A DNA stretch of 64,000 nt from Myxococcota bacterium (GTDB lineage Bacteria; Myxococcota_A; UBA9160; PR03). The stretch spans positions 1,863 to 65,862 of the forward strand of contig JBFIML010000019.1 of assembly GCA_041611735.1 (NCBI GenBank), in the 5' to 3' direction. Position numbers and translations under genes: made by a program. Positions 2,531-50,749 of the stretch are shown one piece after another. Each line of letters begins with the position of its first letter. The stretch's first letter is position 1. Under the pieces are notes generated by a model. It did no database searches and was not told the DNA's origin. It saw nothing but the letters and a program-made list of their open reading frames with translations.

Positions 2531-3163
2531 ATGCTCCGACTCTACGACTTCTGGGAATCGGGCAACGCGTACAAGGTCCGGCTGCTGCTCTCGCTCCTGG
2601 GGCTACCGTTCGAACGGGTCCACGTCGACATCCTGAAGGGCGAAACGCGCACGCCGGCGTACCTGGCCAGGAATCCCAACCACCGGGTGCCCATGCTGGA
2701 GTGGGAGGACGGGCGCAGGCTGGTCGAGTCGAACGCGATCCTGTTCCATCTGGCCGAGGGCAGCGTCTACCTTCCGGACGACCGCTGGCAACGGGCTCAG
2801 GTGCTGCAGTGGATGTTCTTCGAGCAATACAGCCACGAGCCGTACATCGCGGTGGTCCGCTTCTGGCACTTCGCCGGTCTGCTGGAACAGAAGCACGGCT
2901 TCCTGCGCGAGAAGATGGAGCAGGGGTACCACGCCCTGGGGGTGATGGAGGGACACCTGGCCCAGAACCCGTTCTTCGTGGCTGGACGCTATACGGTGGC
3001 GGACATGGCGCTCTATGCGTACACCCACGTTGCACACGAGGGGGGCTTCGAGCTCGGGCGCTTTCCGTCCGTCCGAGCCTGGCTCGGGCGGGTCGCTGCC
3101 CAGCCGGGTCACGTGAGCATCACGGATCCGGTGGGCACCCTCGTCTCGGGAGAGCATCCATGA
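2531..3163 (+). CDS. glutathione S-transferase
   Basis: 'MLRLYDFWESGNAYKVRLLL...NPNHRVPMLE...ESNAILFHLAEG' shows a GST N-terminal thioredoxin-like fold followed by a C-terminal helical domain. Confidence 0.9.
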   Translation: MLRLYDFWESGNAYKVRLLLSLLGLPFERVHVDILKGETRTPAYLARNPNHRVPMLEWEDGRRLVESNAILFHLAEGSVYLPDDRWQRAQVLQWMFFEQYSHEPYIAVVRFWHFAGLLEQKHGFLREKMEQGYHALGVMEGHLAQNPFFVAGRYTVADMALYAYTHVAHEGGFELGRFPSVRAWLGRVAAQPGHVSITDPVGTLVSGEHP

Positions 3164-4676: not shown

Positions 4677-4852
4677 CGTCCGTGGCCGGGCTCGTCCTCG
4701 CTCTGGGTCGCCTGGCGGCCTCGGCGCTGGGTGCCGTGGCGGACTCCCAGAGTTTCGTGACGCACCTCGACCCCCGCAGCGGGCTGCTGCGGATGTTCGT
4801 ACCCTGGTACCGGCTCGGGATCGCAGCCGGGCCGCAGCCGGGAGAGGATCCG

Positions 4853-6184
4853 ATGCACCAGGAACGTCGCTTCGTGGAGATCAGCCCCTGGATCGAGACG
4901 CCCTCCGACCGTTGCCCGGCCTTGGAGCGGGATCTGCGCGCGGACGCGGTGGTGATCGGGGCCGGATACACGGGCCTCTCGACGGCCCTCTCGCTCCGCC
5001 AGGAGGGAGCCGACGTGGTCGTCCTGGAGCGCGACTTCGCCGGCGCCGGGGCGAGCGGACGCAACGCGGGCCATCTGACGCCCACCATCGGGAAGGACCT
5101 CCCCACGCTGCTGCGCCTGTTCGGTCGCGAGCGGGCGGCGGCGCTGGTTCGCTTCGCAGACCAGGCCGTGGAGTACACGGAGCAGGGGATCGAGAAGCAC
5201 GCGATCGATTGCGAGTACGTGCCGAACGGAAACGTCCTCGCCGCCGTCCACCCGAAGCAGGAGGCCCGCCTGCGCCGGGCGGCGGAGACGGCCGCGCAGC
5301 TGGGCGGCCGGGTGCGCTTCCTGTCCGCTCCCGAGCTTCGGGAGCGCGGTTTCCCGCGCGCCTTCCCTTGCGGCGTGCTCGAGGAACGCGGGGGGACGCT
5401 CCATCCAGGCCGCTACGTGCTCGGATTGCGGCGCGCCGCGCTGGAGGCGGGAGTGCGGCTGTTCGAGGGCACGCCGGTTCGGGAGCTCACGGAAGGCACG
5501 TCCGTGCGCGCCCGCACCCCCGGCGGCACGGTGACTGCGGACGCGGCGGTGCTCGCCACGAACGCCTATACGCCGGCCCTCGGCTGGAAGCGCCGCACGG
5601 TGGTGCCGCTTCGCGTCTCCCTGTTCGAGACGCAGCCCCTGGCCGATGAGCACCTCGCCGCGCTCGGCTGGCCGGGGCACGAGGGCATCTACACTGCCCA
5701 CGAGATCCTGGAGAGCTACCGCCTGACGGCGCGCAGGACGGTGGTCGGCGGCTCGAAGGTGGTGCGCTACGGGTGGCGAAGCGCGCTTCCAGCGGGCCCC
5801 GATCCCGCCGCGTTCCGGATCGTGGAGCGCGGCTTCCGGGAGCGCTTTCCGGAGCTCGCCGGCGTGCCGGTGGCCTGCTTCTGGGGCGGCTGGATCGCGT
5901 TCTCCCTGGACTCCCTGCCGCTCCTTGGCGCGGCGGGAACGCACCGCAACGTCTTCTACGGGATCGGCTACGCGGGCCACGGCGTGGCCCAGGCCACGCT
6001 CATGGGGGCGATGCTGGCCGACCGGGTTCGCGGCCGGGTCCACGGCTGCCAGGCGGCGCTGGCGCGTCGGGAGCACGCCTGGCCCCCCGAGCCGCTGCGG
6101 TGGCTCGGGTCGAAGCTCCTGCTGGGAGCCCTGACGGTTCTCGACGCTCGCACCGATCGCCAGGTGCGACGTCGGACTCGGTAG
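4853..6184 (+). CDS. FAD-dependent oxidoreductase (DAO/glycine-sarcosine oxidase-like family)
   Basis: Rossmann motif 'DAVVIGAGYTGLSTAL...VVVLER'; also 'ASGRNAGH' and 'GYAGHGVA'. ATG at 4853 follows 'ggagagga'. Confidence 0.85.
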   Translation: MHQERRFVEISPWIETPSDRCPALERDLRADAVVIGAGYTGLSTALSLRQEGADVVVLERDFAGAGASGRNAGHLTPTIGKDLPTLLRLFGRERAAALVRFADQAVEYTEQGIEKHAIDCEYVPNGNVLAAVHPKQEARLRRAAETAAQLGGRVRFLSAPELRERGFPRAFPCGVLEERGGTLHPGRYVLGLRRAALEAGVRLFEGTPVRELTEGTSVRARTPGGTVTADAAVLATNAYTPALGWKRRTVVPLRVSLFETQPLADEHLAALGWPGHEGIYTAHEILESYRLTARRTVVGGSKVVRYGWRSALPAGPDPAAFRIVERGFRERFPELAGVPVACFWGGWIAFSLDSLPLLGAAGTHRNVFYGIGYAGHGVAQATLMGAMLADRVRGRVHGCQAALARREHAWPPEPLRWLGSKLLLGALTVLDARTDRQVRRRTR

Positions 6185-8812: not shown

Positions 8813-9211
8813 GTGGCGCGCACCCTGAGCCTGGCCTTCGCCGCCGGTGCGCTCGGAGGACTCGCCAACAGCCTCGTCGCGTGGGCGAGCGGTGAGTCGG
8901 GGCTCAGCGCCTGGCTGGGCGTCGCCGGGGCGCCGGCGCTGACGCCCGCCTGGCTCTACCCCCGCCTGGTCTGGGGCGGCCTGTGGGGGCTGCTCTTCGC
9001 CCTGCCGCTCGGCTTCCGGAGCTGGGCGACGCGCGGCCTGGTGCTCAGTCTCGGGCCGAGTCTCGTGCAGCTGCTGGTGATCTTCCCCTTCCGGGCGGGC
9101 AAGGGGTTCTTCGGCTTCGGCCTCGGTGCCGCTACGCCCGCTCTCGTGCTGGCCTTCAACGCCGTGTGGGGCCTCGCCGCGTCGGCCTGGATGAAGCGGG
9201 TGGCGCGGTGA
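8813..9211 (+). CDS. membrane protein, function unknown
   Basis: 132-aa hydrophobic ORF, and the first of four overlapping genes. Confidence 0.55.
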   Translation: MARTLSLAFAAGALGGLANSLVAWASGESGLSAWLGVAGAPALTPAWLYPRLVWGGLWGLLFALPLGFRSWATRGLVLSLGPSLVQLLVIFPFRAGKGFFGFGLGAATPALVLAFNAVWGLAASAWMKRVAR

Positions 9212-9681
9212 GGGAAGGCGCCTCCGAGGGGACGCGGTCGCGCCGCGTCCTGCCGCCGGTCTTCTTTGCCGTGGCGCTCGCCGGCATGGTTGCACTCCAT
9301 TGGCTGGCCCCGCTTGCCGAGCCGCTGCCCGCGCCGCTCTCCTGGCTGGGCTTCGTTCCCGCCCTCCTCGGCGTGGCGATGATCCTCGCCGCCGCGCGTC
9401 GCTTCGAGCGGGCGGGCACCACCATCAAGCCCTTCCGGCGCTCGAGCAGCCTGGTTCGAGAGGGTCCCTACCGCTTCACGCGCAACCCCATGTACCTGGG
9501 CATGGTGCTCGTCCTCCTCGGAGTCGCCCTGGGCCTGGGCAGCGTCACGCCGTTCCTGGTCCTTCCCGTCTTCGTCGTCCTGATCCAGCGTCGCTTCGTT
9601 CGCGCCGAGGAGGCCCTCCTGGCCGAGGTCTTCGGGGCGGACTACGACGCCTACCGGCGCCAGGTGCGGCGATGGATCTAG
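9208..9681 (+). CDS. isoprenylcysteine carboxyl methyltransferase (ICMT)/phospholipid methyltransferase family protein
   Basis: GTGA overlap with the upstream gene. 'GPYRFTRNPMYLGMVLVLLG...RAEEALLAEVFGADYDAYRRQV'. Confidence 0.8.
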   Translation: MREGASEGTRSRRVLPPVFFAVALAGMVALHWLAPLAEPLPAPLSWLGFVPALLGVAMILAAARRFERAGTTIKPFRRSSSLVREGPYRFTRNPMYLGMVLVLLGVALGLGSVTPFLVLPVFVVLIQRRFVRAEEALLAEVFGADYDAYRRQVRRWI

Positions 9682-10076
9682 GCCCCTGGCTGCGCTGGGC
9701 CGCTCTCGGAGCGGCCCTTGCCGCCGCGACGACGCTGACGAGCCGCGCGGGTCTGCTGGGTGACCCGATCTCTCTGCATGCCGTGTTGCTGGGGGCCATC
9801 GCCGCCGTCTACGTGGGCTTCGCCCTGGCAGACGGGCGGCTGGGCATCGTCACGGCGGAGGCGATGGTGGCCCTCGCATTCCTGGGGACGGCGCTCGCCG
9901 GCCTGGGTCTGGACCCCGTGTGGATCGGGATCGGCCTCGCCGGGCACGGCGTCTGGGACGTGCTGCATCACCCGCGCGGGATCCGCACCCGGATCCCGTC
10001 CTGGTATCCGCCCTTGTGCGCCGTGTACGATTGGATCCTGGCGGCGCTCTTCCTGGCCGGCGCGGCCCTGCGATGA
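9672..10076 (+). CDS. membrane protein, function unknown
   Basis: ATG at 9672 overlaps the ICMT 3' end by 10 nt. Four TMs. Confidence 0.5.
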   Translation: MDLGPWLRWAALGAALAAATTLTSRAGLLGDPISLHAVLLGAIAAVYVGFALADGRLGIVTAEAMVALAFLGTALAGLGLDPVWIGIGLAGHGVWDVLHHPRGIRTRIPSWYPPLCAVYDWILAALFLAGAALR

Positions 10077-24758: not shown

Positions 24759-24901
24759 CGCCGCCCGGGCCTCCGCGGCGCGTCCGCGCCCCCCGCGGCG
24801 CCTCATTCTAGGAAAAATTCTGCCGCCCCCCGGGACCGTTGCCCCTGCCCGGGGCGTCTGCGACATTGACTCCCATCCATCCTCCAACGGAGCCACGCGG
24901 T

Positions 24902-26434
24902 GTGCCCGTGATCGACCGCGGACCCGAAGTCCGCCTGCGCAACTGGTTCGATCGCCCCTACGACGACGCCATCGCCGCCGCCCGAACCTGCTACTCGCCT
25001 CGTGTGGTCGAGGCGGACGAGGTCACGGACCGGCAGCGGCGCAGCATCGGGCCGCTCACCTTCGACGGCGGCCACCACACCGTCTATCAGCACGCCACCT
25101 TCGAGTTCGCGCTGTCCGGGCTTTCACGCCAGGTCGTGTGGGGCTTCCTGCACGCCTTTCCGTTCTACAACACGGAGCAGCAGAGCCAGCGCTACGTGCG
25201 CCTGGACGAGGCGCGCGCCCACGTGCCGCCCGTCCTGGGCGGGCGGGCCCGGGAGCTCTACGAGCGCGCGCTCGAAAGCGCCTGGCGCGCCTATGCGGAG
25301 CTGACCGCACGGCTCCAGCCGGTCACCCACGCCATCCTGGCCGACCTGTGGCGCCTGGCCGAGCGACAGTCGAAGGCCTTCGGTCGGGGCGTGGCGCGCG
25401 AGGCCGAGAAGAAGGCCATCGAGACCGCGCGCTACGTGATCCCGATCGCCTGTCACACGGCCATGGTCTACACGGTGTCGGGAATCGTGCTGCACCGCAT
25501 GCGGCGCATGGCTGGAGTCTGCGACACCCCGGACGAGGCGCGCGACGTGGTGGACCGCATGGTCGCGGAGGTGGAGCGCGTGGACCCGGCCTTCTTCCAG
25601 GAGGTGGGTGAGACGCCGCTCGACCCGTCGGAGGTGGTGGAGCGGGAGGCGCCCTGCGGCATGGGCGACCCGGCCGCCCTCGAAGCCTTCGACAAGTCCC
25701 TGGACGGCCGCCTCTCGCGGCTGGTGGACTACGGGGCACGAGCGCCCGAGGTGGTGGCGGACGCGGTGCGTCACGTGCTCGGCCGTTCGGACCTGGACGA
25801 CGAGAGCGCCCTGGCCCTCGCTCTCGACCCGGCCCGCAACCGCTACCGGCTCGAGACCCTGAACGTCTCCACGCACGCGCCGGTCATGCGCGCGCTGGCC
25901 CACGCCCATTACACGTTTCGCAAGCGGCTCTCCCACACGGCGGACTCCCAGGATCAGCGGCATCGCATGGTTCCCGGTAGCCGTCCCCTGCTCTCGCGCA
26001 CGGTGCCGGCCACGCCGGACGTGCTGGAGCCCGACCTGATCCGCAACCAGCCGCGTGCCCACGCCCTCTTCCGCGAGGCGGTGGAGGAGGCCTGGGACGC
26101 CCGCGCGCGCCTGCTCGCCCTCGGCGTCGCGCCCGAGATCGCGCTCTACGTGCTTCCCAACGCGGTGGCCGTGCGTTTCGAGGAGTCGGGCTCGCTGCTC
26201 CACCTGCTCCACAAGTGGACCATGCGCACCTGCTTGAACGCCCAGCGCGAGATCTGGGAGGCCTCCATGGACGAGGTCGCTCAGGTGCGGGCGGTCCATC
26301 CCCAGCTCATGCGTCACGTGGGTCCGCCCTGCGTGGTCCGCAACGGCCTCGCCCGCCCGCGCTGCACCGAGGGGAGCCACTTCTGCGGCATACCGGTCTG
26401 GCGCAGCTTCCCGCAGGTCGAGCGGAGGATCTGA
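24902..26434 (+). CDS. duplicated (pseudo-dimeric) ThyX-like flavin-dependent thymidylate synthase family protein
   Basis: The N-terminal half has 'FYNTEQQSQRYV' (the S-x-RY part of the ThyX motif). The C-terminal half has 'SQDQRHRMVPGS' (the RHR part). About 510 aa versus about 220-250 for a canonical ThyX. GTG starts at 24902 or 24908. Confidence 0.75.
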   Translation: MPVIDRGPEVRLRNWFDRPYDDAIAAARTCYSPRVVEADEVTDRQRRSIGPLTFDGGHHTVYQHATFEFALSGLSRQVVWGFLHAFPFYNTEQQSQRYVRLDEARAHVPPVLGGRARELYERALESAWRAYAELTARLQPVTHAILADLWRLAERQSKAFGRGVAREAEKKAIETARYVIPIACHTAMVYTVSGIVLHRMRRMAGVCDTPDEARDVVDRMVAEVERVDPAFFQEVGETPLDPSEVVEREAPCGMGDPAALEAFDKSLDGRLSRLVDYGARAPEVVADAVRHVLGRSDLDDESALALALDPARNRYRLETLNVSTHAPVMRALAHAHYTFRKRLSHTADSQDQRHRMVPGSRPLLSRTVPATPDVLEPDLIRNQPRAHALFREAVEEAWDARARLLALGVAPEIALYVLPNAVAVRFEESGSLLHLLHKWTMRTCLNAQREIWEASMDEVAQVRAVHPQLMRHVGPPCVVRNGLARPRCTEGSHFCGIPVWRSFPQVERRI

Positions 26435-32426: not shown

Positions 32427-33791
32427 GTGAGCCTCGAGCGCCGCAGCAGCGAGGCCCTGGAGCGCCCGGTCGGCTGCCTGGCGGACCTGATCGGCTACCT
32501 GCGCGCGGGCGAGAAGCCCCCCGAACGCTGGCTCGTGGGGATCGAGCACGAGAAGCTCGCCGTCCTCGCTTCGGGAGCCCCGGTTCCCTACGAGGGGGAG
32601 GATGGCATCGAGAGCCTGCTGCGGCGGCTCGCCGACGCGGACGGCTGGAAGACGGTGGGCGAGGACGGCCGCGTGGTGGCGCTCGAGAAGGAGACCCTGG
32701 GCGTCTCCCTCGAGCCCGGTGCCCAGGTGGAGCTCGATGGCACGCCGCTGCGCACGGTGCACGCGCTCATGGCGGAGGTCGAGGGGCACCTGCAGCGGCT
32801 CAAGCGCCTGAGCGACCCGCTCGGAATCCACTGGCTCGGTGTCGGGCTGCATCCCTTCGCGGGCGTTGCGAGCGTGCCGCGGGTCCCGCGAGAACGCTAC
32901 CGCATGATGCGCGCGATCCTGTCGCAGCGCGGTGAGCTCTCGCTCGAGATGATGCACTGCACGGCGGCGATCCAGGCGAGCTTCGACTATGCGGACGAGG
33001 CCGACATGGTGGCCAAGATGCGTGCGGCCCTGGCCGTGACCCCCCTGGTGGCGGCGCTCTTTGCCAACTCCAGCGTGAGCGAAGGGCGGGCGAACGGCTT
33101 CGTCTCGCGCCGGCTGCACGTCTGGGGCGGAACCGATCCGGACCGGACCGGGATGCTTCCCTTCGTCTTCGAGCCGGACTTCGGCTACCAGCGCTACGTC
33201 GAGTATGCGCTCGACGTTCCGACGCTGTTCATCCGCCGGGGCGGTCGCTACCGGGAGGTCGGCGGCAAGACGTTCGGGCGTTTCCTGGACGAAGGTCACG
33301 AGGGCGAGCGCGCGACGCTGGCGGACTTCGACCTGCATCTGACCACGCTCTTTCCCCACGTGCGTCTCAAGCAGATCCTCGAGGTGCGCGTCTCGGATGC
33401 GGTGCCGGCACCGCTCCTCGGGGCGATCCCGGCGCTCTGGAAGGGGCTGCTCTACGACGCGGAAGCGCGGGAATTCGCCCTCGCTCATGCCCGTCGCTGG
33501 AGTCACGTGGACCGGCGCGCGTTGCTCGATGCCGTAGCCCGGGCCGGTCTGGCGGCCCGGGCGCCGGACGGGCCGGTGCTGCCGGCGGCCCGGGAGCTGG
33601 TGGCCGCGGCCCGGGCCGGGTTGCGCCGCCTGGCCGAGCGCGATCCCGCCGGCCGCGACGAGGGCCTCTTCCTCGAGCCGCTCGAGGCCCGTCTCGAGGA
33701 CGGGCGCAGCCCCGGCGAGGTCGTTCTCGAGCGTTGGCAAGGCGAGTGGGGCCGCTCTCCGCAGCGCTTGATCGAGTACGCGCGTTACTGA
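32427..33791 (+). CDS. gshA: glutamate--cysteine ligase, GCS2 (plant/proteobacterial) type
   Basis: 'VGIEHEKLAV', 'SLEPGAQVELDGTP', 'MMHCTAAIQASFDY', 'LFANSS', 'LTTLFPHVRLKQILEVR'. GTG at 32427 lies 8 nt after 'ggagg'. Confidence 0.85.
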   Translation: MSLERRSSEALERPVGCLADLIGYLRAGEKPPERWLVGIEHEKLAVLASGAPVPYEGEDGIESLLRRLADADGWKTVGEDGRVVALEKETLGVSLEPGAQVELDGTPLRTVHALMAEVEGHLQRLKRLSDPLGIHWLGVGLHPFAGVASVPRVPRERYRMMRAILSQRGELSLEMMHCTAAIQASFDYADEADMVAKMRAALAVTPLVAALFANSSVSEGRANGFVSRRLHVWGGTDPDRTGMLPFVFEPDFGYQRYVEYALDVPTLFIRRGGRYREVGGKTFGRFLDEGHEGERATLADFDLHLTTLFPHVRLKQILEVRVSDAVPAPLLGAIPALWKGLLYDAEAREFALAHARRWSHVDRRALLDAVARAGLAARAPDGPVLPAARELVAAARAGLRRLAERDPAGRDEGLFLEPLEARLEDGRSPGEVVLERWQGEWGRSPQRLIEYARY

Positions 33792-33823: not shown

Positions 33824-34372
33824 ATGGCTCAGAAGTTCAAGATCCAATTCACGCTCGACGAGTCGGACCTGAACTTCTTCCGGGCCCTGTTCCGCAAGGC
33901 CCGCCAGGAGGCCACGCAGCGGGACTCCCAGGAGATCGTGAAGGTCGTGCAGGAGCTGATCAAGCGGGTGACGGCCCAGCGGAAGATCCCTTCCCTGGTG
34001 CAGGAGGCGACGCGGACGCTGGAGGACCTGATCGAGATGCTGAGCGACGAGGATTACGCGCTGCCCAAGCGTGTCTCCTCGGAGGTCATCGCGGCGCTCG
34101 CCTACTTCGCCGATCCCCAGGATCTGATTCCCGACGAGATCCCCGGGCTCGGCTTCCTGGACGATGCCATCATGATCAAGCTGCTCGAGAACGAGTTCCA
34201 GCACGAGCTGTGGGGCTACCGCAAGTTCCGCAGGTTCCGGCAGGGAGCCGAGCAGCGGCCCTGGACGTCCGTGGCCAAGGCGCGCCTGCCGCAGCGCCTG
34301 GAAGCCCAGCGCAAGGACATCCGGGGAAAGATCGATCAACGCAAGCGCGAGCGCCCGTCCTCGTGGTGGTAG
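33824..34372 (+). CDS. DUF1232 (YkvA-like) domain protein
   Basis: 'ALAYFADPQDLIPDEIPGLGFLDDAIMIKL'. ATG at 33824 follows 'gaggagg'. Confidence 0.75.
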   Translation: MAQKFKIQFTLDESDLNFFRALFRKARQEATQRDSQEIVKVVQELIKRVTAQRKIPSLVQEATRTLEDLIEMLSDEDYALPKRVSSEVIAALAYFADPQDLIPDEIPGLGFLDDAIMIKLLENEFQHELWGYRKFRRFRQGAEQRPWTSVAKARLPQRLEAQRKDIRGKIDQRKRERPSSWW

Positions 34373-34403
34373 GTCCACGGCGCGGGCCAACCTGCGTCCG
34401 GCG

Positions 34404-35552
34404 ATGAACGCTTCTTCGCTCCCGCGCATCCTGGTCGTCGACGACGAGGAAGCCATCCTCGAGACGATGGCCTTCACGTTCGAGAGCGAGTACGAGGTGC
34501 TGACGGCCCTCGACGCCCGCAAGGCGCTCACGCTGCTGGACGACCGGGCGCCGGTGGCGGCGGTGATCACGGACCAGCGCATGCCCGAGATGACCGGGGT
34601 CGAGTTCCTGGCCCGGGTCTGCCGGCGGCACCCCTCCACCACGCGCATCATCCTGACCGGCTTCGCGGACATGGATGCCATCGTCCAGGCCATCAACGAG
34701 GGCCACGTGTACGCCTACGTGGCGAAGCCGTGGGAGCCCGAGGAGCTCAAGCAGGTGGTCCGCCGGGCGGTGGAGCACCACCGGCTGCTGCTGGAGAACG
34801 AGAAGCTCCTGGGGGATCTCAAACACACCAATCTCTTCCTGGAGGCGGCCATGGACGAGATTCCCATGGGCGCCGTGGCCGTGGACGCGCGCAGCGTGGT
34901 GCGGGCCGCCAACCGAACCGCCCGGGAGTACGTGGGCCTCGAGACCGATCCCCGGGGTCAGACCCTGGACGAGGTGCTGGCAGCCGCTCCGCTCTCCCGG
35001 ATGCGTACGGTGGCTCGCGAGCTTTCGGACGGCGGGGAGGGCCGCTTCGAGGAGCTGGAGCTGTCCATGCGTGGCTGTCCCCTGCGCCTGCGTCTGTCCG
35101 TGCGCAACCTGAGCGATGCTTCCGGGCGGTCCCTGGGCCGGGTGATCCTGCTGCGCGAGATCTCCCACGAGCCCCTGCGGCGGCGCCTCGACGAGATCGA
35201 GCAGGAGCTGCTCGACCCGGATCCCGGTATTCGCAAGCGCTTGGAGCAGGCGGTGGAGGAGATGAGACGCCTGACGGGCGAGGTGCGTGGGCGCCGGATC
35301 CGCTCACCGGGCATGGAAGAGCTCGGGGAGCGGATCTCCCGCATGCAGACCGCCGTGGAGAACTGGCTCGCGGTGGACGAGGCGCTGGCGCGCGAGGAGT
35401 ATCCCGACGCCCGGGTCCTGGTGGACCGCATGCGGTTGGCCCTGGCGCGCTGGCCCAGCCCCGAACAGCTCCCGGAGCCGATTCGGGAGCTGGCACGTCG
35501 CGTGGAGAGCTACTACGAGTCTGGCGAGAACTCCGGACAGAGCGTTCTCTGA
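34404..35552 (+). CDS. response regulator: REC + PAS-like domain + unknown helical C-terminal domain
   Basis: 'ILVVDDEEAILE...AAVITDQRMPEMTGVEFL...YVAKPWEPEEL', followed by a PAS-like 'MGAVAVDARSVVRAANRTAREYVGLE'. Confidence 0.85.
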   Translation: MNASSLPRILVVDDEEAILETMAFTFESEYEVLTALDARKALTLLDDRAPVAAVITDQRMPEMTGVEFLARVCRRHPSTTRIILTGFADMDAIVQAINEGHVYAYVAKPWEPEELKQVVRRAVEHHRLLLENEKLLGDLKHTNLFLEAAMDEIPMGAVAVDARSVVRAANRTAREYVGLETDPRGQTLDEVLAAAPLSRMRTVARELSDGGEGRFEELELSMRGCPLRLRLSVRNLSDASGRSLGRVILLREISHEPLRRRLDEIEQELLDPDPGIRKRLEQAVEEMRRLTGEVRGRRIRSPGMEELGERISRMQTAVENWLAVDEALAREEYPDARVLVDRMRLALARWPSPEQLPEPIRELARRVESYYESGENSGQSVL

Positions 35553-35610
35553 GCCTCGACCGGCCGAGGGAGGGGTCGAGCGCCTCGAGCTTCCGCTCGA
35601 GCGCCTGCGC

Positions 35611-37218
35611 GTGCGCGTGCGCTTCACGTGGGCCTTCCATGCCCGGGAGGTGCGCATCGAGACCGACGCCGGCGAGGGGCCGGTGCCGGCCTTTCCGGAG
35701 ACCTTCTCCTTCCATACCGAACGGCACGACCCGACCGAGCTCGCGCTCCAGCTGGAGGACCTGTGGACGAATCCGCGCCGGCTGGCGCCGCGCGCGGCGG
35801 GGCGCGACGCCGAGGACCTCGTCCGGCGTCTGCTGGCGGCGTTGCCGGGCTACGTGGAGCGCGTGCTGGACCGCCTGGAAGGCGCCGGCCGCCTGCGCGA
35901 CGCGACCCGGTTCCGGATCCTGGGCGACGCGCTCGTGCTGCTGCGCGTGGTGCGTCGCTTCGGGATCGAGAAGGGCCTCGAGGAGCATCCCGACACCCGC
36001 TTCGCCGCCCTGCACCTCCGGAAGCTCCTGTGGCGGACGGTCCGGGACCTGCTCCTGGCCCGCTTGTCGCCGGATGCGTTGGTGCAGGGTCTGAGCGAGT
36101 GGCGGTCGGAAATTCCGGCTGCCCGGGACGTGACCGACACGACGCTGGTCCGCGCCCTCGCGGAGCCGGAAAGCGACTCCCTCCTCCGGCTGCTGACCTC
36201 CGTTGCCGAGGATGCCTTCCACCGCTGGCTCGAGGACGTGTGCCTGGACGAATCGAATGGCGCCTTCGAGGGCGAGGATTCCCCGTTCGAGGACCGTGAG
36301 ACGGAGATCCTGCAGGCGGTGGCAGTTCCGGCCGGAGCCCCGATCCAGCGCGGCCGGGACCTCTCGCCCTTGCTGCGACGAAGCGGTAATCGCGACTGCG
36401 CCCGCGTGCTGGGCAAGCTCGAGGTCTGGTTCCTGCGCCAGTACGACATCCACCACGCGGCGGCGGTGATCCGCCACGCGGCGGAGCTGGCGCGTGGCCG
36501 CGAAGATGCGGACCGCGTCCTCTCGCGCCACACCACGCGGAACTACCTGCTGGCGATCGCGGCGCTCCTGGCACCCTTCCTGGGGGCAGCCTTCGCCTAC
36601 CCGCGGGCCCCGCTCTTCTTCGACCTGCTGTGTTCCCTGGAGATCGTGGCGGTGTTCGGCGCTGCGCTCTGGTTCCTGCTCTACCAGTTCTGCTGGCGCA
36701 AGGATCTCACCTACTTCCATGCGGGGGTGCCCCGCATCGGAGCCGGGATCGTGGTGGGCTACCTGCCCGTCTTCCTGATCGACGAGGTGTGGGATCTGGC
36801 CCGCCGGCCCTGGTTCCCCCTCATGCTGGTGGTGCTGCTGCTTGGCTTCACCACGCTCCTCTATCTCTACACCGAGGTGCAACGGCGCATCGGGGACCCG
36901 CGCGAAGCATTTGCCCGGGCCCGCCGCATCTTCCTGCTCGGCGTGGTGCAAGCGCTGGCGCTCGGGCTCCTGGTCACGAGCCTGCTCGGCCGCTTCATGG
37001 TGGCCCGCTCCTGGGACCCGGGGGCGTCTCCCACGGCGTCGCTGGAGTGGCTGCGCAGCGTGACGCCGCCCCTGGTGGGCGAGCTGCCCCGCATCGTGGG
37101 CGTGGAGCCGATCCTCGCCTTCCCGACGGCAGTGCTGCTCATGACCTTCCTGTCCTTCTTCATTGGCACCTTCCTGCAGCTCATGTGGGAGGACCTGCCC
37201 ATCACGGAGCCGCTCTAG
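35611..37218 (+). CDS. hypothetical protein: ~330-aa soluble N-domain + 6 TMs
   Basis: The long in-frame ORF is 35287..37218, and only the part after the upstream stop at 35552 is free. GTG 35611/35617 are candidate starts, so the start is uncertain. I recognise no family. Confidence 0.6.
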   Translation: MRVRFTWAFHAREVRIETDAGEGPVPAFPETFSFHTERHDPTELALQLEDLWTNPRRLAPRAAGRDAEDLVRRLLAALPGYVERVLDRLEGAGRLRDATRFRILGDALVLLRVVRRFGIEKGLEEHPDTRFAALHLRKLLWRTVRDLLLARLSPDALVQGLSEWRSEIPAARDVTDTTLVRALAEPESDSLLRLLTSVAEDAFHRWLEDVCLDESNGAFEGEDSPFEDRETEILQAVAVPAGAPIQRGRDLSPLLRRSGNRDCARVLGKLEVWFLRQYDIHHAAAVIRHAAELARGREDADRVLSRHTTRNYLLAIAALLAPFLGAAFAYPRAPLFFDLLCSLEIVAVFGAALWFLLYQFCWRKDLTYFHAGVPRIGAGIVVGYLPVFLIDEVWDLARRPWFPLMLVVLLLGFTTLLYLYTEVQRRIGDPREAFARARRIFLLGVVQALALGLLVTSLLGRFMVARSWDPGASPTASLEWLRSVTPPLVGELPRIVGVEPILAFPTAVLLMTFLSFFIGTFLQLMWEDLPITEPL

Positions 37219-37276
37219 GCGCCACCCTCTGGCGGCGCCGGCATCCAAGTGGGTACCCTTGCCAGCGGAGGTTCCG

Positions 37277-38482
37277 ATGTCCGAGATCGTGATCTACGCC
37301 AAGGACGGCTGCCCCTACTGCGACATGGCCAAGCGCCTGCTGGCCTCCAAGGGGCAGCGCTGGACGGAGATCGACGTGGAGACCGACGCCGCGCGCCGGC
37401 GCGAGATGGTGGAGCGCAGCGGCCAGCGCACGGTGCCGCAGATCTTCATCGGGGGGCGGCACGTGGGCGGCTTCGACGAGCTGAAAGCGCTCGAGGACTC
37501 CGGAGAGCTCGACGCGCTGCTCGGCATCGAGCGCCGCCGGCGGGACGCTCCCGGCGAGCGTGCCCGGCTCGTGATCGTCGGCGGTGGGCCAGCTGGCTAC
37601 ACGGCGGCCCTGTACGCCGCACGGGCCGAGCTCGCCCCCGTGGTCGTGGCGGGTCTGCAGGCCGGCGGACAGCTCATGCTGACCACCGACGTGGAGAACT
37701 ACCCGGGCTTCCCGGAAGCCGTGACCGGGCCCGAGCTGATGGAGCGCTTCCAGAAGCAGGCCGAGCGTTTCGGAGCCCGGGTCCTGCTCGAGGACGCCAC
37801 GAAGATCGATCTCTCCGCACGTCCATTTCGGGTGGAGACGGAGGGGCGCATGCTGGCCGCCGAGGCCCTGATCCTGGCCACGGGGGCGTCCGCGAAGTGG
37901 CTCGGGCTCCCTTCCGAGCAGCGGCTGCAGAACCGGGGCGTCTCCGCCTGCGCCACCTGCGACGGCGCCCTCTACCGCGGCAAGCCCATGGCCGTGGTCG
38001 GAGGCGGGGACACCGCGATGGAGGAGGCGCTCTTCCTGACCCGCTATGCCACCCGGGTCACCGTGATCCACCGGCGGCGCGAGCTGCGCGCATCGCGCAT
38101 CATGCAGGAGCGGGCCCTCGGCAACCCGAAGATCGAGTTCGTCTGGGACGCGGAGGTGGACGAGGTGCTGGGCGACGAGTTCGTGACCGGGGTGCGGGTG
38201 CGCGACGTAACCACCGGGGAGAAGCGGGAGCTTGCGGTGGAAGCGCTGTTCATCGCGATCGGGCACGAGCCCAACACGAGTCTCGTTGCGGGCCAGCTCG
38301 AGCTCGATCCGGTCGGGTACGTGAAGGCCGAGCCGGGCAGCACGCGCACCTCCGTGGAAGGGGTGTTCGCCTGCGGCGACGCCATCGACCCGACCTACCG
38401 CCAGGCGGTGACCGCCGCCGGGACCGGTTGCATGGCGGCCATCGACGCGGAACGCTGGCTGGCGGCCCAGGGCATCGAGTGA
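37277..38482 (+). CDS. trxB: glutaredoxin (GrxC-type) fused to low-Mr NADPH thioredoxin reductase
   Basis: N-terminus: 'IVIYAKDGCPYCDMAKRLL...TVPQIFIGGRHVGGFDEL'. Then 'VIVGGGPAGYTAALYAAR', redox 'CATCDG', 'VVGGGDTAMEEA', 'HRRRELRAS' and 'GVFACGD'. It is a single uninterrupted ORF. Confidence 0.9.
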   Translation: MSEIVIYAKDGCPYCDMAKRLLASKGQRWTEIDVETDAARRREMVERSGQRTVPQIFIGGRHVGGFDELKALEDSGELDALLGIERRRRDAPGERARLVIVGGGPAGYTAALYAARAELAPVVVAGLQAGGQLMLTTDVENYPGFPEAVTGPELMERFQKQAERFGARVLLEDATKIDLSARPFRVETEGRMLAAEALILATGASAKWLGLPSEQRLQNRGVSACATCDGALYRGKPMAVVGGGDTAMEEALFLTRYATRVTVIHRRRELRASRIMQERALGNPKIEFVWDAEVDEVLGDEFVTGVRVRDVTTGEKRELAVEALFIAIGHEPNTSLVAGQLELDPVGYVKAEPGSTRTSVEGVFACGDAIDPTYRQAVTAAGTGCMAAIDAERWLAAQGIE

Positions 38483-38522
38483 CGGCAGGCGGGACTGCTG
38501 GGGAGGCGCCGCTCTCGTTGCC

Positions 38523-39611
38523 ATGGCGCTGACGAAGGAGCGTCTCGAACGGCTCATCGCCCAGTCCACGGACATCGTGGTGGCCACGGACCGCAAGGGC
38601 ATCGTCGTCTACTACAACGATGGCGCCCGCAAGATCCTCGGCTACCAGTCACGCGAGATCCTGGGCCGTTTCGTCGGTCAGCTCTACCCGGAGCTGGCGG
38701 AGGCGAAACGGGTGATGGCCGCCATGCGCGACCCGGGGCACGGCGGGGCGGGCATCTGCGAGACCTTCCAGACCGCCTTCCTCTCCAAGACGGGCGAGCG
38801 GATCCCGGTGGCCATCTCCGGCACCTTGCTCTACGACGAGGCCGGCCGCGAGGACGGCACGATCGGCTTCGCCAAGGATCTGCGCGAGATCCTGCGCAAG
38901 GATCAGCTCGCCACCCTGGGCGAGATCGCCGTGGGTCTCTCCCACGAGATCAACAACCCGCTGGCGGTGATCGTGAACCAGGCCGAGCTGCTGGAACGCG
39001 ACTTGCAGCGGCTGGCCGGGGAGGCGGATGCCTCGGTCGAATTCGAGCGCCTCGATGCGGTCCGTCGCGAGGTGGCACGCATCGCGGAGATCCTCGAGCG
39101 CCTGGGACAGCTGGTTCGCGACGAACGCTACGAGACGGTGGAGTACATCGGTCCGGCCAAGATGATCGACCTGCGGCGCCGGGAGCGGGCGCGGCCTCCC
39201 GATCTGCGCATGAAGGGCCTGCGCATCCTGCTGGTAGACGACGACATGGGGATCTGCAGCACGCTCTCCGAGATGCTCGAGGCGGAAGGCTGCGTGGTGG
39301 AGACCGCCTCGGACGGAGAAGAGGCGCTACGTCGCCTGGAGACCCGGCCCGTGGACGTGGTGCTCACCGACGTGGTCATGCCCAACATGGACGGGCACGA
39401 GCTGTTCGTGAACCTGCGCAAGCGCCACCCGACCCTCCCGGTGCTGATGATGACGGCTTTCCACTACGACAAGGACCACATCATCAAGCGCAGCCGCCTG
39501 GAGGGGCTGGAGGGCGTCATCTTCAAGAAGCCGGTCGATCCGGAGCGCCTGCGGCAGGTGCTGCTGGAGGTGACGGGGCGGGCCGGCGCGCCGGATGCCT
39601 CGCGCCCCTAG
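38523..39611 (+). CDS. PAS + HisKA + REC protein with no HATPase_c domain
   Basis: PAS 'DIVVATDRKGIVVYYNDGARKILGY'; H-box 'GLSHEINNPLAVI'; only about 30 aa before REC 'ILLVDDDMG...VVLTDVVMPNMDG...KKP'. Confidence 0.85.
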   Translation: MALTKERLERLIAQSTDIVVATDRKGIVVYYNDGARKILGYQSREILGRFVGQLYPELAEAKRVMAAMRDPGHGGAGICETFQTAFLSKTGERIPVAISGTLLYDEAGREDGTIGFAKDLREILRKDQLATLGEIAVGLSHEINNPLAVIVNQAELLERDLQRLAGEADASVEFERLDAVRREVARIAEILERLGQLVRDERYETVEYIGPAKMIDLRRRERARPPDLRMKGLRILLVDDDMGICSTLSEMLEAEGCVVETASDGEEALRRLETRPVDVVLTDVVMPNMDGHELFVNLRKRHPTLPVLMMTAFHYDKDHIIKRSRLEGLEGVIFKKPVDPERLRQVLLEVTGRAGAPDASRP

Positions 39612-40339
39612 GGTCCGCCCGGGGTCCGTGCCACGCACACGGCCACCACCCGCCCGGCTCCCGCCCGCTCCAGGGCCCGGGCTGCCGCGGCGAGCGTCGC
39701 GCCCGTCGTGACCACGTCGTCCACCAGACCGACGCAGGCCCGCCCGGCCAGGCGGCGCCTGGCCCGGAAGGCGCCGGCCACGTTGCGCTCGCGGGCGCGG
39801 CGGTCGAGCCCCGTCTGGCTCGGCGTGTCGCGCCGGCGTCCGATCAGCGTCGGGTCCCAGGGCAGGCCGCAGGCGCGGGCCAGGACGCGGCACAGCTCTC
39901 CCGCCGGGTGGAAGCCCCGCGCACGCAGTCGCCGCGGATGGATGGGGACCGGAACCAGCAGGGTCGGGCCCGGCGGCGGCAGGCGCCGGGCCGCCTCGGC
40001 CGCGAGCCAGCCCACCACCGCCGCCGGCCGCGGGTCCAGGCCCGCCAGGCCCGGGCGGCCGTACTTGAAACGCCGGACCCAGGCGGCCGCCTCCCCGGCG
40101 AACGCCACCTCCGCCACGCAGGCGCCGAGGCCGCCGGAGCGCGACGCGCAGGCCACGCACCGCAGGCCCCCCGGCCCGGCCGGCGCGGCCTGGCAGCGCA
40201 CGCACGCGTCGCGGGGAAGCCGCGGCAGTCGCACGGCGCAGGCCGCGCACAGGACCTGCGGTGGCGTGACGCCACACCCGCACCCCGCGCACGCAGGAGG
40301 CAGCACGAGGTCGAGCAGGCCGCGCAGCAGCCCGCGCAC
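39608..40339 (-). CDS. comF: ComF family protein (phosphoribosyltransferase domain, N-terminal Cys-rich zinc ribbon)
   Basis: 'LVLPPACAGCG...LCAACAVRL...CVRC', then 'GLVDDVVTTGATLAAAARAL'. GTG at 40339. Confidence 0.8.
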   Translation of the reverse strand: MRGLLRGLLDLVLPPACAGCGCGVTPPQVLCAACAVRLPRLPRDACVRCQAAPAGPGGLRCVACASRSGGLGACVAEVAFAGEAAAWVRRFKYGRPGLAGLDPRPAAVVGWLAAEAARRLPPPGPTLLVPVPIHPRRLRARGFHPAGELCRVLARACGLPWDPTLIGRRRDTPSQTGLDRRARERNVAGAFRARRRLAGRACVGLVDDVVTTGATLAAAARALERAGAGRVVAVCVARTPGGP

Positions 40340-40374
40340 GCGAGTGCCTCCACGGGACCGGGGCGAGGCGGGCC

Positions 40375-41904
40375 TCAGGCGAGCAGCGAGCGGCCGGTCA
40401 TGGCCTCCGGCACCGGGAGGTGCAGGAGGTCCAGCAGGGTCGGGGCCACGTCCGAGAGCCCCCCGTCCCGCAGGGACCGGGCGCCGGGATCGGCCACGAT
40501 CCAGTGCAGCGGCACGGGGTTCGTGGTGTGGGCGGTGTGCGGCTTGCCGGTCTGCGGGTCCACCATCTGCTCGCAGTTTCCGTGGTCGGCGGTCACCAGC
40601 AGCGTTCCGCCCAGGTCGAGCACCTTTTCCACGACGCGATCCAGACACGCGTCGACCGTCTCCAGCGCCTTCACGGTGGCCGGAAGGATGCCCGTGTGTC
40701 CCACCATGTCCGGGTTGGCGTAGTTCACGAGCACGAAGCGGTAGACCCGCTCGTCGAGGCGCCGCAGCAGCTCCTCGGTGACCTCGCGGGCGCTCATCTC
40801 GGGCTTGTGGTCGTAGGTGGGCACCTCGCGGGGCGAAGGGATCAGCATGCGGTCCTCGCCCTCGAAGGGCTCCTCGCGCCCGCAGTTGAAGAAGTAGGTC
40901 ACGTGAGCGTACTTCTCGGTCTCGGCGATGCGGAGCTGGCGCAGCCCCGCCCGTGAGATCAGCTCCCCGAGGATGTGACGCGGCGACTCGGGAGGGAAGG
41001 CCACCGGGAGTCCGAACTGCTGGTCGTACTCCGTAAAGGTCACGAAGCCCGCGAGACCCGGCACGCTCCGCCGCTCGAGCCGTCCTTCGAAGCGCTCGGC
41101 GCAGCGCCCCGTGAGCGCCGCCGTGAGCTGGCGCGCCCGGTCGGCGCGGAAGTTGAAGAACACCACGCCGTCCCCGTCGGTGAGGGCGCGGCCGCCGGCC
41201 ACGACGGTCGGCTGCACGAACTCGTCGCCCTCGTCCCGCTCGTAGGCGCGACGCACGGCGCCGAGCGCATCCGGGGCCTCGAGCCCCTGGCGCAACACGA
41301 TGGCGTCGTAGGCGCGTTGGGTGCGTTCCCAGCGGTTGTCGCGGTCCATGGCGTAGTAGCGGCCCGAGACCGTGGCCACCTGTCCGCCGGCGGCCTCCAG
41401 GTGGGGCAGCAGTCGCTCCAGGTAGTCGAGGGCCGAGCGGGGCGGCGTGTCGCGCCCGTCCAGGAAGGCGTGCACCAGGGGGCGCAGCCCGTGCTGGCGA
41501 CAGGAGTCGAGCAGACCCAGCAGGTGGTCGAGATGGCTGTGCACGCCCCCGTCCGAGACGAGCCCCATCAGGTGGAGGGTTCCTCCAGCGGCGGCCACGG
41601 CCCTCTGGAGCTCCCGGAGCGGCGGGTTCTCCGCCAGGGCTCCCGAGGCGACCGCCTTGCTGATGCGCAGCAGATCCTGATCGATCCTGCGGCCTGCGCC
41701 CATCGTCATGTGCCCGACCTCGGAGTTCCCCATCTGGCCGGCGGGTAGCCCCACCGCCTCGCCGGAGGCATCGAGACGCGACGAGGGATACTGGCTGCGC
41801 GCGCGCTCGAAGAAGGGGGTGCTGGCTTGGGCCACGGCGTCGCCGGGACCGCCGGGCCCCACGCCGAAGCCATCGAGCACGACCAGCACGATGGGACGGG
41901 TCAC
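40375..41904 (-). CDS. gpmI: 2,3-bisphosphoglycerate-independent phosphoglycerate mutase
   Basis: 'VLVVLDGFG', 'GNSEVGHMTMGAGR', 'LMGLVSDGGVHSH', 'VTADHGNCE'. GTG at 41904 overlaps the rsfS stop (GTGA). The ATG at 41958 is an alternative. Confidence 0.95.
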   Translation of the reverse strand: MTRPIVLVVLDGFGVGPGGPGDAVAQASTPFFERARSQYPSSRLDASGEAVGLPAGQMGNSEVGHMTMGAGRRIDQDLLRISKAVASGALAENPPLRELQRAVAAAGGTLHLMGLVSDGGVHSHLDHLLGLLDSCRQHGLRPLVHAFLDGRDTPPRSALDYLERLLPHLEAAGGQVATVSGRYYAMDRDNRWERTQRAYDAIVLRQGLEAPDALGAVRRAYERDEGDEFVQPTVVAGGRALTDGDGVVFFNFRADRARQLTAALTGRCAERFEGRLERRSVPGLAGFVTFTEYDQQFGLPVAFPPESPRHILGELISRAGLRQLRIAETEKYAHVTYFFNCGREEPFEGEDRMLIPSPREVPTYDHKPEMSAREVTEELLRRLDERVYRFVLVNYANPDMVGHTGILPATVKALETVDACLDRVVEKVLDLGGTLLVTADHGNCEQMVDPQTGKPHTAHTTNPVPLHWIVADPGARSLRDGGLSDVAPTLLDLLHLPVPEAMTGRSLLA

Positions 41905-49351: not shown

Positions 49352-50749
49352 GTGGCCCGTGCGGAACCCGAGCCCCTGGATCCCCGGCGCGCGCTTCCGG
49401 CGGTGGACGCGCTGGCGGCGGAGATCCGTGCCGCGGCGCCCGAGCTGCCCGCCTGGGTCTGCCGCGCTGCCGCCCGGGAGGCGGTGGGAGAGGCCCGCCA
49501 GGCCCTCGAACGCGGCCGGGAGGTCCCGGAGCCCCTGGCGGCCCGCGGCACCCGCCTCGCCGCGGCCCTGGCGCGTCCGCGGCCCGCGCGCGTGGTGAAC
49601 GCCACCGGGGTCGTGCTCCACACGAACCTCGGCCGCGCCCCCCTGGCCCCCGCCGCCAGCCGGGCTGCCGCCGAGGCCGGCGCCCGCTACACGGACCTCG
49701 AGCTCGGGGCGGACGAGCGGCGACGCGGCGATCGCCTGGCTGCCCTGGAGGCGCTGCTCGTGCAGCTCTCCGGGGCCGAGGCGGCCTTCGCTGTCAACAA
49801 CAACGCCGCCGCCCTGGTGCTGGCCGCCCACGCCCTGGCCCGCGACCGGGAGGTGGTGGTTTCGCGCGGCGAGCTGGTGGAGATCGGCGGCTCGTTCCGC
49901 CTGCCGGCAATGCTCGACGCCGCGGGCGTGCGGCTCGTGGAGGTGGGCACCACCAACCGGACCCACGCCGACGACTACCGGCGGGCGCTCGGCCCCCGCA
50001 CCGGGCTCCTGCTGAAGGTGCACCGCAGCAACTTCGAGCTGCGTGGCTACGTGGCGGAAGTCGGCGTGCAGGAGCTGGCCGGGATCGCCCGCGCGCACGC
50101 CGTGCCGTTGCTCGAGGATCTGGGCAGCGGGACGCTGCTGGACCTGCGGGCCTGGGGCCTGCCCGAGGCCTGCTGGGCGCCCGGACGCCTGCGCCTCGGG
50201 GCGGACCTCGTGTGCTTCTCGGGCGACAAGCTGTTGGGCGGGCCGCAGGCAGGGATCCTGCTGGGACGAAGCGAGTCGCTGGACGCCCTGCGCCGTGATC
50301 CGCTGGCCCGTGCCGTGCGCCTCGACAAGCTGGCCATCGCGGCGCTCGACGCGACGCTGCGCCTGCTGCTGGACGAGCAACCGGAGCGGAGCCTTCCGGT
50401 GCTGCGAGCCTTGACGGAGACGGCCCCGGCCGTCGAGGGCCGGGCCCGGCGCCTGGCCGAGCGGCTCGCCGCGGCTGCGGGGACCCGACTCGCGATCCGC
50501 GTGGAGCCGACGCGGGCTCCCGTCGGTGGAGGCTCGCTACCGGGCTTCGAGATCGACTCCTGGGCCGTCGCCCTGCGGCCCCCGGACGGCCCCGATGCCC
50601 TCGCCCGGCGCCTCCGGCGGGCCGCGGTGCCGGTGCTCGTGCGCGTGCGGGAGGACGCAGTCCTGCTCGACGCGCGCACGCTCCTGCCCGACGACGAGGA
50701 GGCACTCGAGGCGTCCCTGGGCGCCGCGCTGGCCGACGCTGCGGATTGA
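49352..50749 (+). CDS. selA: L-seryl-tRNA(Sec) selenium transferase
   Basis: 'VVNATGVVLHTNLGRAPL', 'AFAVNNNAAALVL', 'VVSRGELVEIGGSFRLP', 'KVHRSNF', 'FSGDKLLGGPQAGIL' (PLP Lys). GTG start. Confidence 0.9.
   Translation: MARAEPEPLDPRRALPAVDALAAEIRAAAPELPAWVCRAAAREAVGEARQALERGREVPEPLAARGTRLAAALARPRPARVVNATGVVLHTNLGRAPLAPAASRAAAEAGARYTDLELGADERRRGDRLAALEALLVQLSGAEAAFAVNNNAAALVLAAHALARDREVVVSRGELVEIGGSFRLPAMLDAAGVRLVEVGTTNRTHADDYRRALGPRTGLLLKVHRSNFELRGYVAEVGVQELAGIARAHAVPLLEDLGSGTLLDLRAWGLPEACWAPGRLRLGADLVCFSGDKLLGGPQAGILLGRSESLDALRRDPLARAVRLDKLAIAALDATLRLLLDEQPERSLPVLRALTETAPAVEGRARRLAERLAAAAGTRLAIRVEPTRAPVGGGSLPGFEIDSWAVALRPPDGPDALARRLRRAAVPVLVRVREDAVLLDARTLLPDDEEALEASLGAALADAAD

Follow-up and report, generated by a model that had tools for sequence, protein, structure and literature searches.

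According to the textbook scheme, thioredoxin (Trx) is reduced by thioredoxin reductase (TrxR), and glutaredoxin (Grx) by glutathione (GSH) together with glutathione reductase. A gene encoded in a 64,000-nucleotide stretch of DNA from a Myxococcota bacterium (assembly GCA_041611735.1, contig JBFIML010000019.1; the whole of this stretch is called the window in what follows) raises the question of whether both routes can be served by one enzyme, as its single open reading frame (ORF) begins with a Grx and continues into a TrxR. The Grx-TrxR fusion is genuine: its two parts share one reading frame, and the arrangement is conserved in evolution. It is best read as a housekeeping low-molecular-weight (low-Mr) thioredoxin reductase, TrxB, carrying a glutathione-competent Grx at its N-terminus, so that NADPH would drive Grx chemistry directly while the ability to reduce Trx would be retained; to this reading we assign a probability of roughly 60%.

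The original prediction had described one uninterrupted ORF of 401 residues made up of a Grx and a TrxR, which translation of the forward strand confirmed, and each of the motifs listed in it (CPYC, GGGPAG, CATC, GGGDTA, HRRxxxR and GD) was located by script, GD lying at residues 367-368. The stretch joining the two halves had been given as an Arg-rich linker of 11 residues; it is Arg-rich in the window protein, but it measures about 13 residues (84-96) and its Arg-richness is not kept in relatives. An identical 401-residue entry (P0001) exists in a public protein collection. A protein search over 5.8 billion clusters returned at least 8000 matches, the best 120 of which, originating from NCBI, JGI, ENA and Logan assemblies, are 74-84% identical, 394-430 residues long (mostly 399-401) and contain PF00462 and PF07992 in all cases. 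The suspicion that a sequencing or assembly error had created the fusion thus fails, since the same arrangement is common to more than 120 independent protein clusters or assemblies. Although a longer in-frame start exists (TTG at 37163), the ATG at 37277 is favoured because a GGAGG sequence sits 5 nucleotides 5' of it, because the GC content at third codon positions (GC3) in the fusion frame rises only from about 37277, and because of the lengths of these 120 homologs. In a window with a GC content of 72%, GC3 remains between 0.8 and 1.0 in this same frame across the Grx/TrxR junction (37493-37672), and this unbroken course means that the ORF conceals no frameshift.

When the TrxR half is considered by itself, it has the features of an ordinary NADPH-type TrxB, which should still reduce Trx. 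Pfam Pyr_redox_2 matches the fusion protein over residues 97-384 (E = 7e-51), and the NCBIfam equivalog model TIGR01292 (TRX_reduct) over residues 97-395 with 392.6 bits, above its cut-off of 343.45. Among PDB sequences, this half matches Brucella TrxR (4jnq) with E = 4e-109 and mycobacterial, plant and E. coli TrxRs with E values under 1e-95 in each case, and the top Foldseek matches of the AlphaFold2 model are TrxRs only, at 45-56% identity. In an alignment of 124 fused homologs, which takes in the L005/L006, P0131 and P0163 lineages, both CATC and HRRxxxR are present in every sequence, and G102, G104 and A106 of the FAD motif are invariant in homolog alignment A1. Clade-specific positions in the TrxR of the fused proteins number only three, two of which are common to the unfused sister loci L003 and L004, and no fusion-specific remodelling of the Trx-docking surface was found in the homolog comparison. 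The small number of such positions, together with the occupation of a syntenic trxB slot (see below), is what identifies the reductase as an ordinary TrxB.

The Grx half is equally well defined, with a Pfam Glutaredoxin match over residues 4-63 (E = 5e-22) and 109.1 bits to the NCBIfam equivalog model TIGR02181 (GRX_bact), for which the cut-off is 90. Since both halves pass their equivalog cut-offs, the protein belongs fully, as judged by these models, to the TrxB and the GrxC family alike. Searched alone against PDB sequences, the Grx half finds Brucella Grx (2khp, E = 7e-26) and E. coli Grx3 (1fov, E = 1.5e-24), and the NrdH structure 4hs1 only with E = 1e-4; the NrdH motifs CVQC/CMQC and WSGFRP are absent from the fusion protein. 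The active site reads CPYC in 119 of the 124 fused homologs, CPFC in three, and CSYC and CSFC in one each, C12 and C15 being invariant throughout. The residues expected to contact glutathione (K9, R40/R41, T52-V53-P54 and G64-G65-F66-D67-E68) are kept in 96-124 of the 124 homologs, with T52 conserved in 118, V53 in 121, P54, G64 and G65 in all, and D67 in 121; NrdH and the Clostridium pasteurianum protein Cp9, in contrast, are without such a glutathione-binding site. The predicted local distance difference test (pLDDT) score of this domain in the AlphaFold2 model is about 90. The domain appears to be a glutathione-competent class I Grx, nearest to the GSH-dependent Grx3-type proteins rather than to NrdH, and a GSH-dependent disulfide oxidoreductase activity is predicted for it.

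Mean column conservation across the fused homologs is 0.81 for Grx, 0.84 for TrxR and 0.40 for the linker; both halves are therefore under purifying selection. The linker keeps a length of 12-19 residues in this alignment and is free in sequence, as expected if it acts as a tether that must permit docking. No cysteines other than C12, C15, C225 and C228 are invariant. As this leaves no third redox centre, any internal transfer must go from CATC to CPYC directly. The AlphaFold2 model has confident domains and a mean pLDDT of 85.4. No two-domain Grx-TrxR template was retrieved by Foldseek, and no solved structure with this layout was found in the PDB searches.

In the mechanism that these features suggest, NADPH would reduce the FAD, which would in turn hand the electrons to the CATC disulfide (C225/C228) of the NADPH domain. 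Upon rotation of this domain from the flavin-oxidising (FO) to the flavin-reducing (FR) conformation, the CATC dithiol would reduce either free Trx or, alternatively, by thiol-disulfide exchange, C12/C15 (CPYC) of the tethered Grx, which the flexible linker of 12-19 residues would keep close to the TrxR. The reduced Grx could then work without glutathione reductase in the deglutathionylation of proteins or in the reduction of glutathione disulfide (GSSG) or gamma-Glu-Cys disulfide, and further clients might be the disulfides of, for instance, ribonucleotide reductase and peroxiredoxins. We infer all electron-transfer steps from CATC to CPYC and onward, as well as the retained reduction of Trx.

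Several known systems show that the individual steps of such a scheme have counterparts elsewhere. Low-Mr TrxRs reduce separate Grx-fold proteins directly in the case of C. pasteurianum Cp34/Cp9 (an unfused pair of a TrxR-like and a Grx-like protein), the NrdH-redoxins and E. coli Grx4. Reynolds and Poole, in 2000, reportedly grafted the N-terminal domain of AhpF on E. coli TrxR, upon which AhpC reduction was gained and Trx reduction kept. In AhpF itself, the CxxC of the TrxR-like part passes its electrons to an N-terminal CxxC domain, as summarised in PMC12288474. In Synechocystis, which is without glutathione reductase, an NTR-Grx1-Grx2-Fed7 pathway made of separate proteins has a low-Mr TrxR reduce Grx directly, according to PMC10295655.

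A number of points nevertheless weigh against the proposed reading. No biochemical report on any member of the Grx-TrxR family was found in the literature. To our knowledge, the E. coli glutaredoxins Grx1-3 are not substrates of the TrxR of that species, and transfer from CATC to CPYC would therefore need the high local concentration that a tether provides. Grx3-type proteins have a redox potential of about -200 mV, which makes net reduction of GSSG unfavourable at standard state; the true output may for this reason be deglutathionylation or the reduction of client disulfides and not bulk GSSG reduction. In the AlphaFold2 model, the predicted template-modelling score of 0.64 and the linker pLDDT below 50 leave the relative placement of the domains uncertain, so that a docked Grx is neither shown nor excluded. 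Finally, motifs of trxA, gor and prx were not found within the 64-kb window, the portion of the genome covered here, which contains no gshB or second trxB either.

Structurally, AhpF is a closer analogue than the thioredoxin-glutathione reductase (TGR) of animals and flatworms; in it, an N-terminal thioredoxin-fold CxxC domain, a short linker and a low-Mr TrxR-type flavoprotein with a CxxC of its own follow one another in the same order. This likeness is at the base of the strongest competing explanation, in which the protein would be a dedicated miniature AhpF whose Grx is a built-in shuttle to one client, a peroxiredoxin most likely or else ribonucleotide reductase, and has no role with glutathione. 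The two layouts are indeed co-linear, as a HMMER alignment pairs residues 11-395 with 131-515 of AhpF (1hyu) at a constant offset of 120, placing CPYC near C129/C132, and Foldseek aligns the model with AhpF 4o5q over 421 columns. Candidate clients also exist near some relatives: a divergent peroxiredoxin-like ORF (9057-9740 on the minus strand of locus L006; …FYRGTWCPYCNLEL…) lies about 250 bp upstream of the fused gene in a Fusobacteriaceae metagenome-assembled genome (MAG), an AhpC/TSA gene lies about 10 kb from the fused gene in the related locus L081, and in Ilyobacter genes for a peroxiredoxin-like protein, a member of the thioredoxin family and DsbA share an island with the fused gene; the Cp34/Cp9/Cp20 system offers a parallel for a peroxiredoxin client. 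However, AhpF has two fused thioredoxin folds where the window protein has one genuine Grx fold of 83 residues, and it is not detected in PDB sequences when the Grx half is searched alone. The fusion protein stays far below the cut-offs of the AhpF model TIGR03140 (225.7 against 502.9 bits) and of TIGR03143 (264.7 against 687.65), and its reductase half counts as a genuine orthologue of TrxB with an NADPH-type nucleotide motif, HRRxxxR, unlike the NADH preference typical of AhpF. Linkage to ahpC, a trait of AhpF, is likewise missing: the 64-kb window holds no peroxiredoxin motif, and no peroxiredoxin gene is found among the annotated neighbours or near the fusion in the syntenic Myxococcota loci. 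The conserved glutathione-binding residues would also be needless for a pure protein-protein shuttle, and we consider this explanation improbable.

A further possibility is that the fusion serves co-localisation only, the Grx being reduced by GSH as usual and the covalent link ensuring equal expression or co-regulation, or else allowing the Grx to regulate or protect the TrxR, for example by deglutathionylation. Classical Grx3-type proteins do take their electrons from GSH, and all GSH-binding residues are kept here; the TrxR domain is without surface remodelling specific to the fusion, and separate grx and trxB genes in a relative (L002, described below) show that the link is not essential. 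Against this, adjacency in an operon would suffice for co-expression, the repeated use of the same order with a linker of 12-19 residues in distant lineages points to a docking geometry, and NTRC, the Mycobacterium leprae TrxR-Trx, AhpF and TGR, the known fused members of this enzyme class, all join a reductase to its direct acceptor, which together leave co-localisation quite unlikely. Lastly, that sequencing, assembly or gene calling merged adjoining grx and trxB genes is effectively refuted, in spite of the different frames and intervening stop of L002 and of RefSeq entries holding just the 318-residue TrxR part, since the best 120 clusters and the finished Ilyobacter polytropus genome have the single ORF with both domains, GC3 is continuous over the junction, and the 318-residue entries, whose first Met lies within the linker, are otherwise identical to 401-residue proteins and are therefore annotation choices.

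Although the layout resembles AhpF, the predicted function of an NADPH-driven Grx housed with a TrxR resembles that of TGR, as the original prediction had reasonably proposed. In TGR, a CPYC Grx also precedes an NADPH-dependent TrxR, and the fusion would, like TGR, combine Grx/glutathione chemistry with Trx reduction. TGR is, however, built on an unrelated high-Mr TrxR, whose FAD domain has a CVNVGC centre and which further possesses an interface domain and, as electron donor to the Grx, a selenocysteine-containing arm (GCUG) at the C-terminus. None of this is seen in the window protein, which has neither a C.N.GC motif nor a C-terminal redox centre (it ends in ...WLAAQGIE), and a Cys occurs within the last 15 residues in only 4 of 120 homologs; its best PDB matches are low-Mr TrxRs throughout. 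At the level of architecture, the two enzymes are thus convergent and not homologous. With NTRC and the M. leprae TrxR-Trx, the fusion has in common a low-Mr NADPH-dependent TrxR joined to a small redox protein that is its substrate (E = 6e-104 between the reductase module and Chlamydomonas NTRC, 7p9d), but those enzymes carry a WCGPC thioredoxin at the C-terminus instead of a CPYC glutaredoxin at the N-terminus, and the motif WC[GP]PC is absent from the fusion protein. A bolder version of the favoured reading holds that the fusion replaces glutathione reductase and forms a single hub that keeps Trx, glutathionylated proteins and the pool of glutathione or gamma-Glu-Cys reduced in its uncultured Myxococcota and SAR324 carriers and in Ilyobacter, as a low-Mr, selenium-free, convergent counterpart of TGR assembled several times independently from trxB and grxC; this we regard as tentative and rather doubtful.

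Turning to the distribution of the architecture, the search for taxonomic spread that the original prediction had proposed finds the fusion in Myxococcota, SAR324, Fusobacteriota and one Halobacterium. In species-representative genomes, full-length matches come from two Myxococcota MAGs (L001 and L002, the latter split), an unclassified low-GC bacterium (L005, 53% identity) and the above-mentioned Fusobacteriaceae MAG (L006, 50%); Anaeromyxobacter oryzisoli (L067) and Nannocystis (L044) have an unfused trxB of about 61% identity. With the L006 protein as query, a second fused lineage emerges, which includes Psychrilyobacter sp., Ilyobacter polytropus DSM 2926 and MAGs assigned to SAR324, Desulfuromonadales and 'Deltaproteobacteria'. 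I. polytropus is cultured and its genome finished; its fusion (ADO84233.1 / WP_013388892.1) is encoded on the 961-kb replicon pILYOP01 (L082, NC_014633.1 574207-591409), in a thiol-redox island that, besides the three genes named earlier, holds those of a TetR regulator, a FAD-dependent oxidoreductase, a flavodoxin and a small Cys-rich protein. An archaeal example is the 440-residue protein of Halobacterium sp. CBA1126 (P0163, WP_157501126.1), in which CATC and HRRxxxR are intact; related TrxRs of haloarchaeal plasmids are unfused and often lie beside trxA. Haloarchaea typically use gamma-Glu-Cys instead of glutathione. In a representative library at 50% identity, the 150 best-matching TrxR clusters include only three with the full-length Grx-TrxR fusion. 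Other architectures are seen in the clusters P0138, P0219, P0159, P0234 and P0130, where low-Mr TrxRs carry DUF433, the zinc-transporter dimerisation domain ZT_dimer, Trx or CoA_binding_2 as N-terminal additions, and where a eukaryote-like protein of 1427 residues combines ankyrin and PH domains with two TrxR modules.

Neighbour joining of 130 TrxR-domain sequences, with 100 bootstraps, places the fused Myxococcota proteins in one clade (95%), with L003 and L004 as its sister group (100%), and pairs L005 with L006 (86%); in none of the replicates (0%) do the fusions as a whole form a single clade. The architecture has therefore probably arisen at least two or three times, although spread by transfer with subsequent domain loss is a conceivable alternative to multiple origins. 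Such non-monophyly, along with the distance between carriers, suggests recurrent selection for the Grx-TrxR arrangement, and the family appears as a conserved Rosetta-stone fusion that evolved more than once.

The surroundings of the gene are informative as to where it came from. In L081, a 76%-identical relative from a contig of 2.45 Mb, the gene order round the fused gene is the same. In L003 (TrxR part 71% identical), a plain trxB directly follows a homolog of the membrane protein that precedes the fusion, and in L004 (67% identical) a plain trxB stands between the GCS2-type ligase and PAS-HisKA-REC genes. These shared slots and the tree identify the fusion as an orthologue of the housekeeping trxB that gained a Grx. 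The glutamate-cysteine ligase gene to which the original prediction drew attention is present upstream, yet a specific tie to the fusion does not hold: its synteny with trxB is seen in L081, L004 and L002, and since unfused sister loci share it, the linkage is older than the fusion. This gene scores 442.5 bits with TIGR01436 (plant-type Glu-Cys ligase), just below the cut-off of 463, and 146 with EgtA. Together with a glutathione S-transferase gene elsewhere in the window, it indicates that the organism uses glutathione-type thiols.

A hard-to-place case is L002 (Myxococcota MAG SMAG_U9501, 4846-6055), which belongs to the same clade and has adjoining but separate grx and trxB genes. At the junction, the grx gene ends in TGA and is followed by GGAGG and, 6 nucleotides on, by the ATG of trxB in the +1 frame (MSAERRRVLIVGSGPAG). 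The locus may represent an ancestral stage of adjacent genes, a secondary split or a frameshift in the MAG; it was rejected as a proven ancestral intermediate, as its position basal to the fused clade has a bootstrap of just 46%. Since the two genes are separate and adjoining, both activities would be coupled there even when unfused. The idea that a widespread grx-trxB operon usually gave rise to the fusion was also rejected: in a tblastn search with the Grx domain across 81 trxB loci, grx was detected at the fused loci, at the split locus L002 and at L013 (2.5 kb from trxB) only.

The membrane protein encoded directly upstream of the fusion has no Pfam or NCBIfam match; in L003 and L081 its homolog directly precedes trxB, whether plain or fused, and in L002 an ORF of 563 residues in this position was matched by size, not by sequence comparison. 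Its conserved C-terminus reads ...LQLMWE[DE]LPITEPL. As it is encoded between a response-regulator/PAS gene and the PAS-HisKA-REC gene, the arrangement suggests a possible signalling operon that takes in trxB, and the PAS-HisKA-REC gene is possibly in the same operon as the fusion. No terminator-like site was found between these last two genes, which is weak evidence, and a promoter and terminator scan of 34000-40400 returned nothing, a result that is uninformative at this GC content. The coordinates of all these features are collected in Table 1.

Table 1. Features of the Grx-TrxR gene, its product and other genes in the window (aa, residues of the fusion protein)
Feature	Positions	Strand	Basis
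Glutathione S-transferase	2531..3163	+	GST_N E 2e-16, GST_C E 3e-8
GCS2-type glutamate-cysteine ligase	32427..33791	+	Pfam GCS2 E 2e-62
Response regulator/PAS gene	34404-35552	+	Pfam/NCBIfam annotation of neighbours
Membrane protein, ~565 aa, directly upstream of fusion	35515..37218 (start approximate)	+	conserved in relatives
Ribosome-binding site GGAGG, 5 nt before ATG	37267..37271	+	read from sequence
Grx-TrxR fusion gene (401 codons + stop)	37277..38482	+	uninterrupted ORF translation
Glutaredoxin domain, aa 1-83, class I dithiol GrxC type	37277..37525	+	TIGR02181
CPYC redox centre of Grx (C12, C15), aa 12-15	37310..37321	+	motif scan
Glutathione-binding motifs TVPQIF (aa 52-57) and GGFDE (aa 64-68)	37430..37480	+	motif scan
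Interdomain linker, aa 84-96, IERRRRDAPGERA	37526..37564	+	pLDDT <50 at residues 87-90
Low-Mr NADPH thioredoxin reductase module, aa 97-401	37565..38479	+	TIGR01292
GGGPAG FAD-binding motif, aa 102-107	37580..37597	+	motif scan
CATC redox centre of TrxR (C225, C228), aa 225-228	37949..37960	+	motif scan
NADPH site GGGDTA (aa 242-247) and HRRRELR (aa 265-271)	38000..38089	+	motif scan
PAS-HisKA-REC signalling protein, directly downstream	38523..39611	+	same neighbour in L081, L004

As for novelty, which the original prediction had left to be checked, no description of a bacterial fusion between Grx and a low-Mr TrxR was found in the full-text literature, whose coverage excludes most subscription-journal papers; the fusion was not found in the work of Alves 2009 on Grx domain combinations, in the GOS selenoproteome, in works on clostridial Trx and on oxidative stress in Fusobacterium, or in an in-silico survey of Trx and Grx. 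An earlier biochemical report may exist outside this coverage. The protein as such is not new to the databases, which already hold hundreds of copies, including that of I. polytropus. Every deposited copy seen bears the name thioredoxin-disulfide reductase, and some gene models of 318 residues, such as WP_041921386.1 (P0405) and HTY19253.1 (P0122), start at a Met in the linker and leave out the Grx; annotation pipelines thus under-report the fusion. To redox biochemists, the arrangement is not a conceptual surprise. A conserved and repeatedly evolved Grx-TrxR would nonetheless wire the thioredoxin and glutaredoxin systems into one polypeptide and, if the proposed reading is true, would be a bacterial counterpart, on a different scaffold, of the TGR of animals and parasites, would explain glutathione chemistry without glutathione reductase in some bacteria, and would offer biotechnology a compact NADPH-driven glutaredoxin. 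The availability of I. polytropus DSM 2926 in culture makes the predicted mechanism directly testable.

Two further genes on the forward strand of the window deserve mention. One encodes SelA, the L-seryl-tRNA selenium transferase (49352-50749, E = 1e-125), and the organism therefore makes selenoproteins. The other (24839-26434) encodes a double-length ThyX of 531 residues with two Thy1 stretches, which looks like a tandem-domain flavin-dependent thymidylate synthase.

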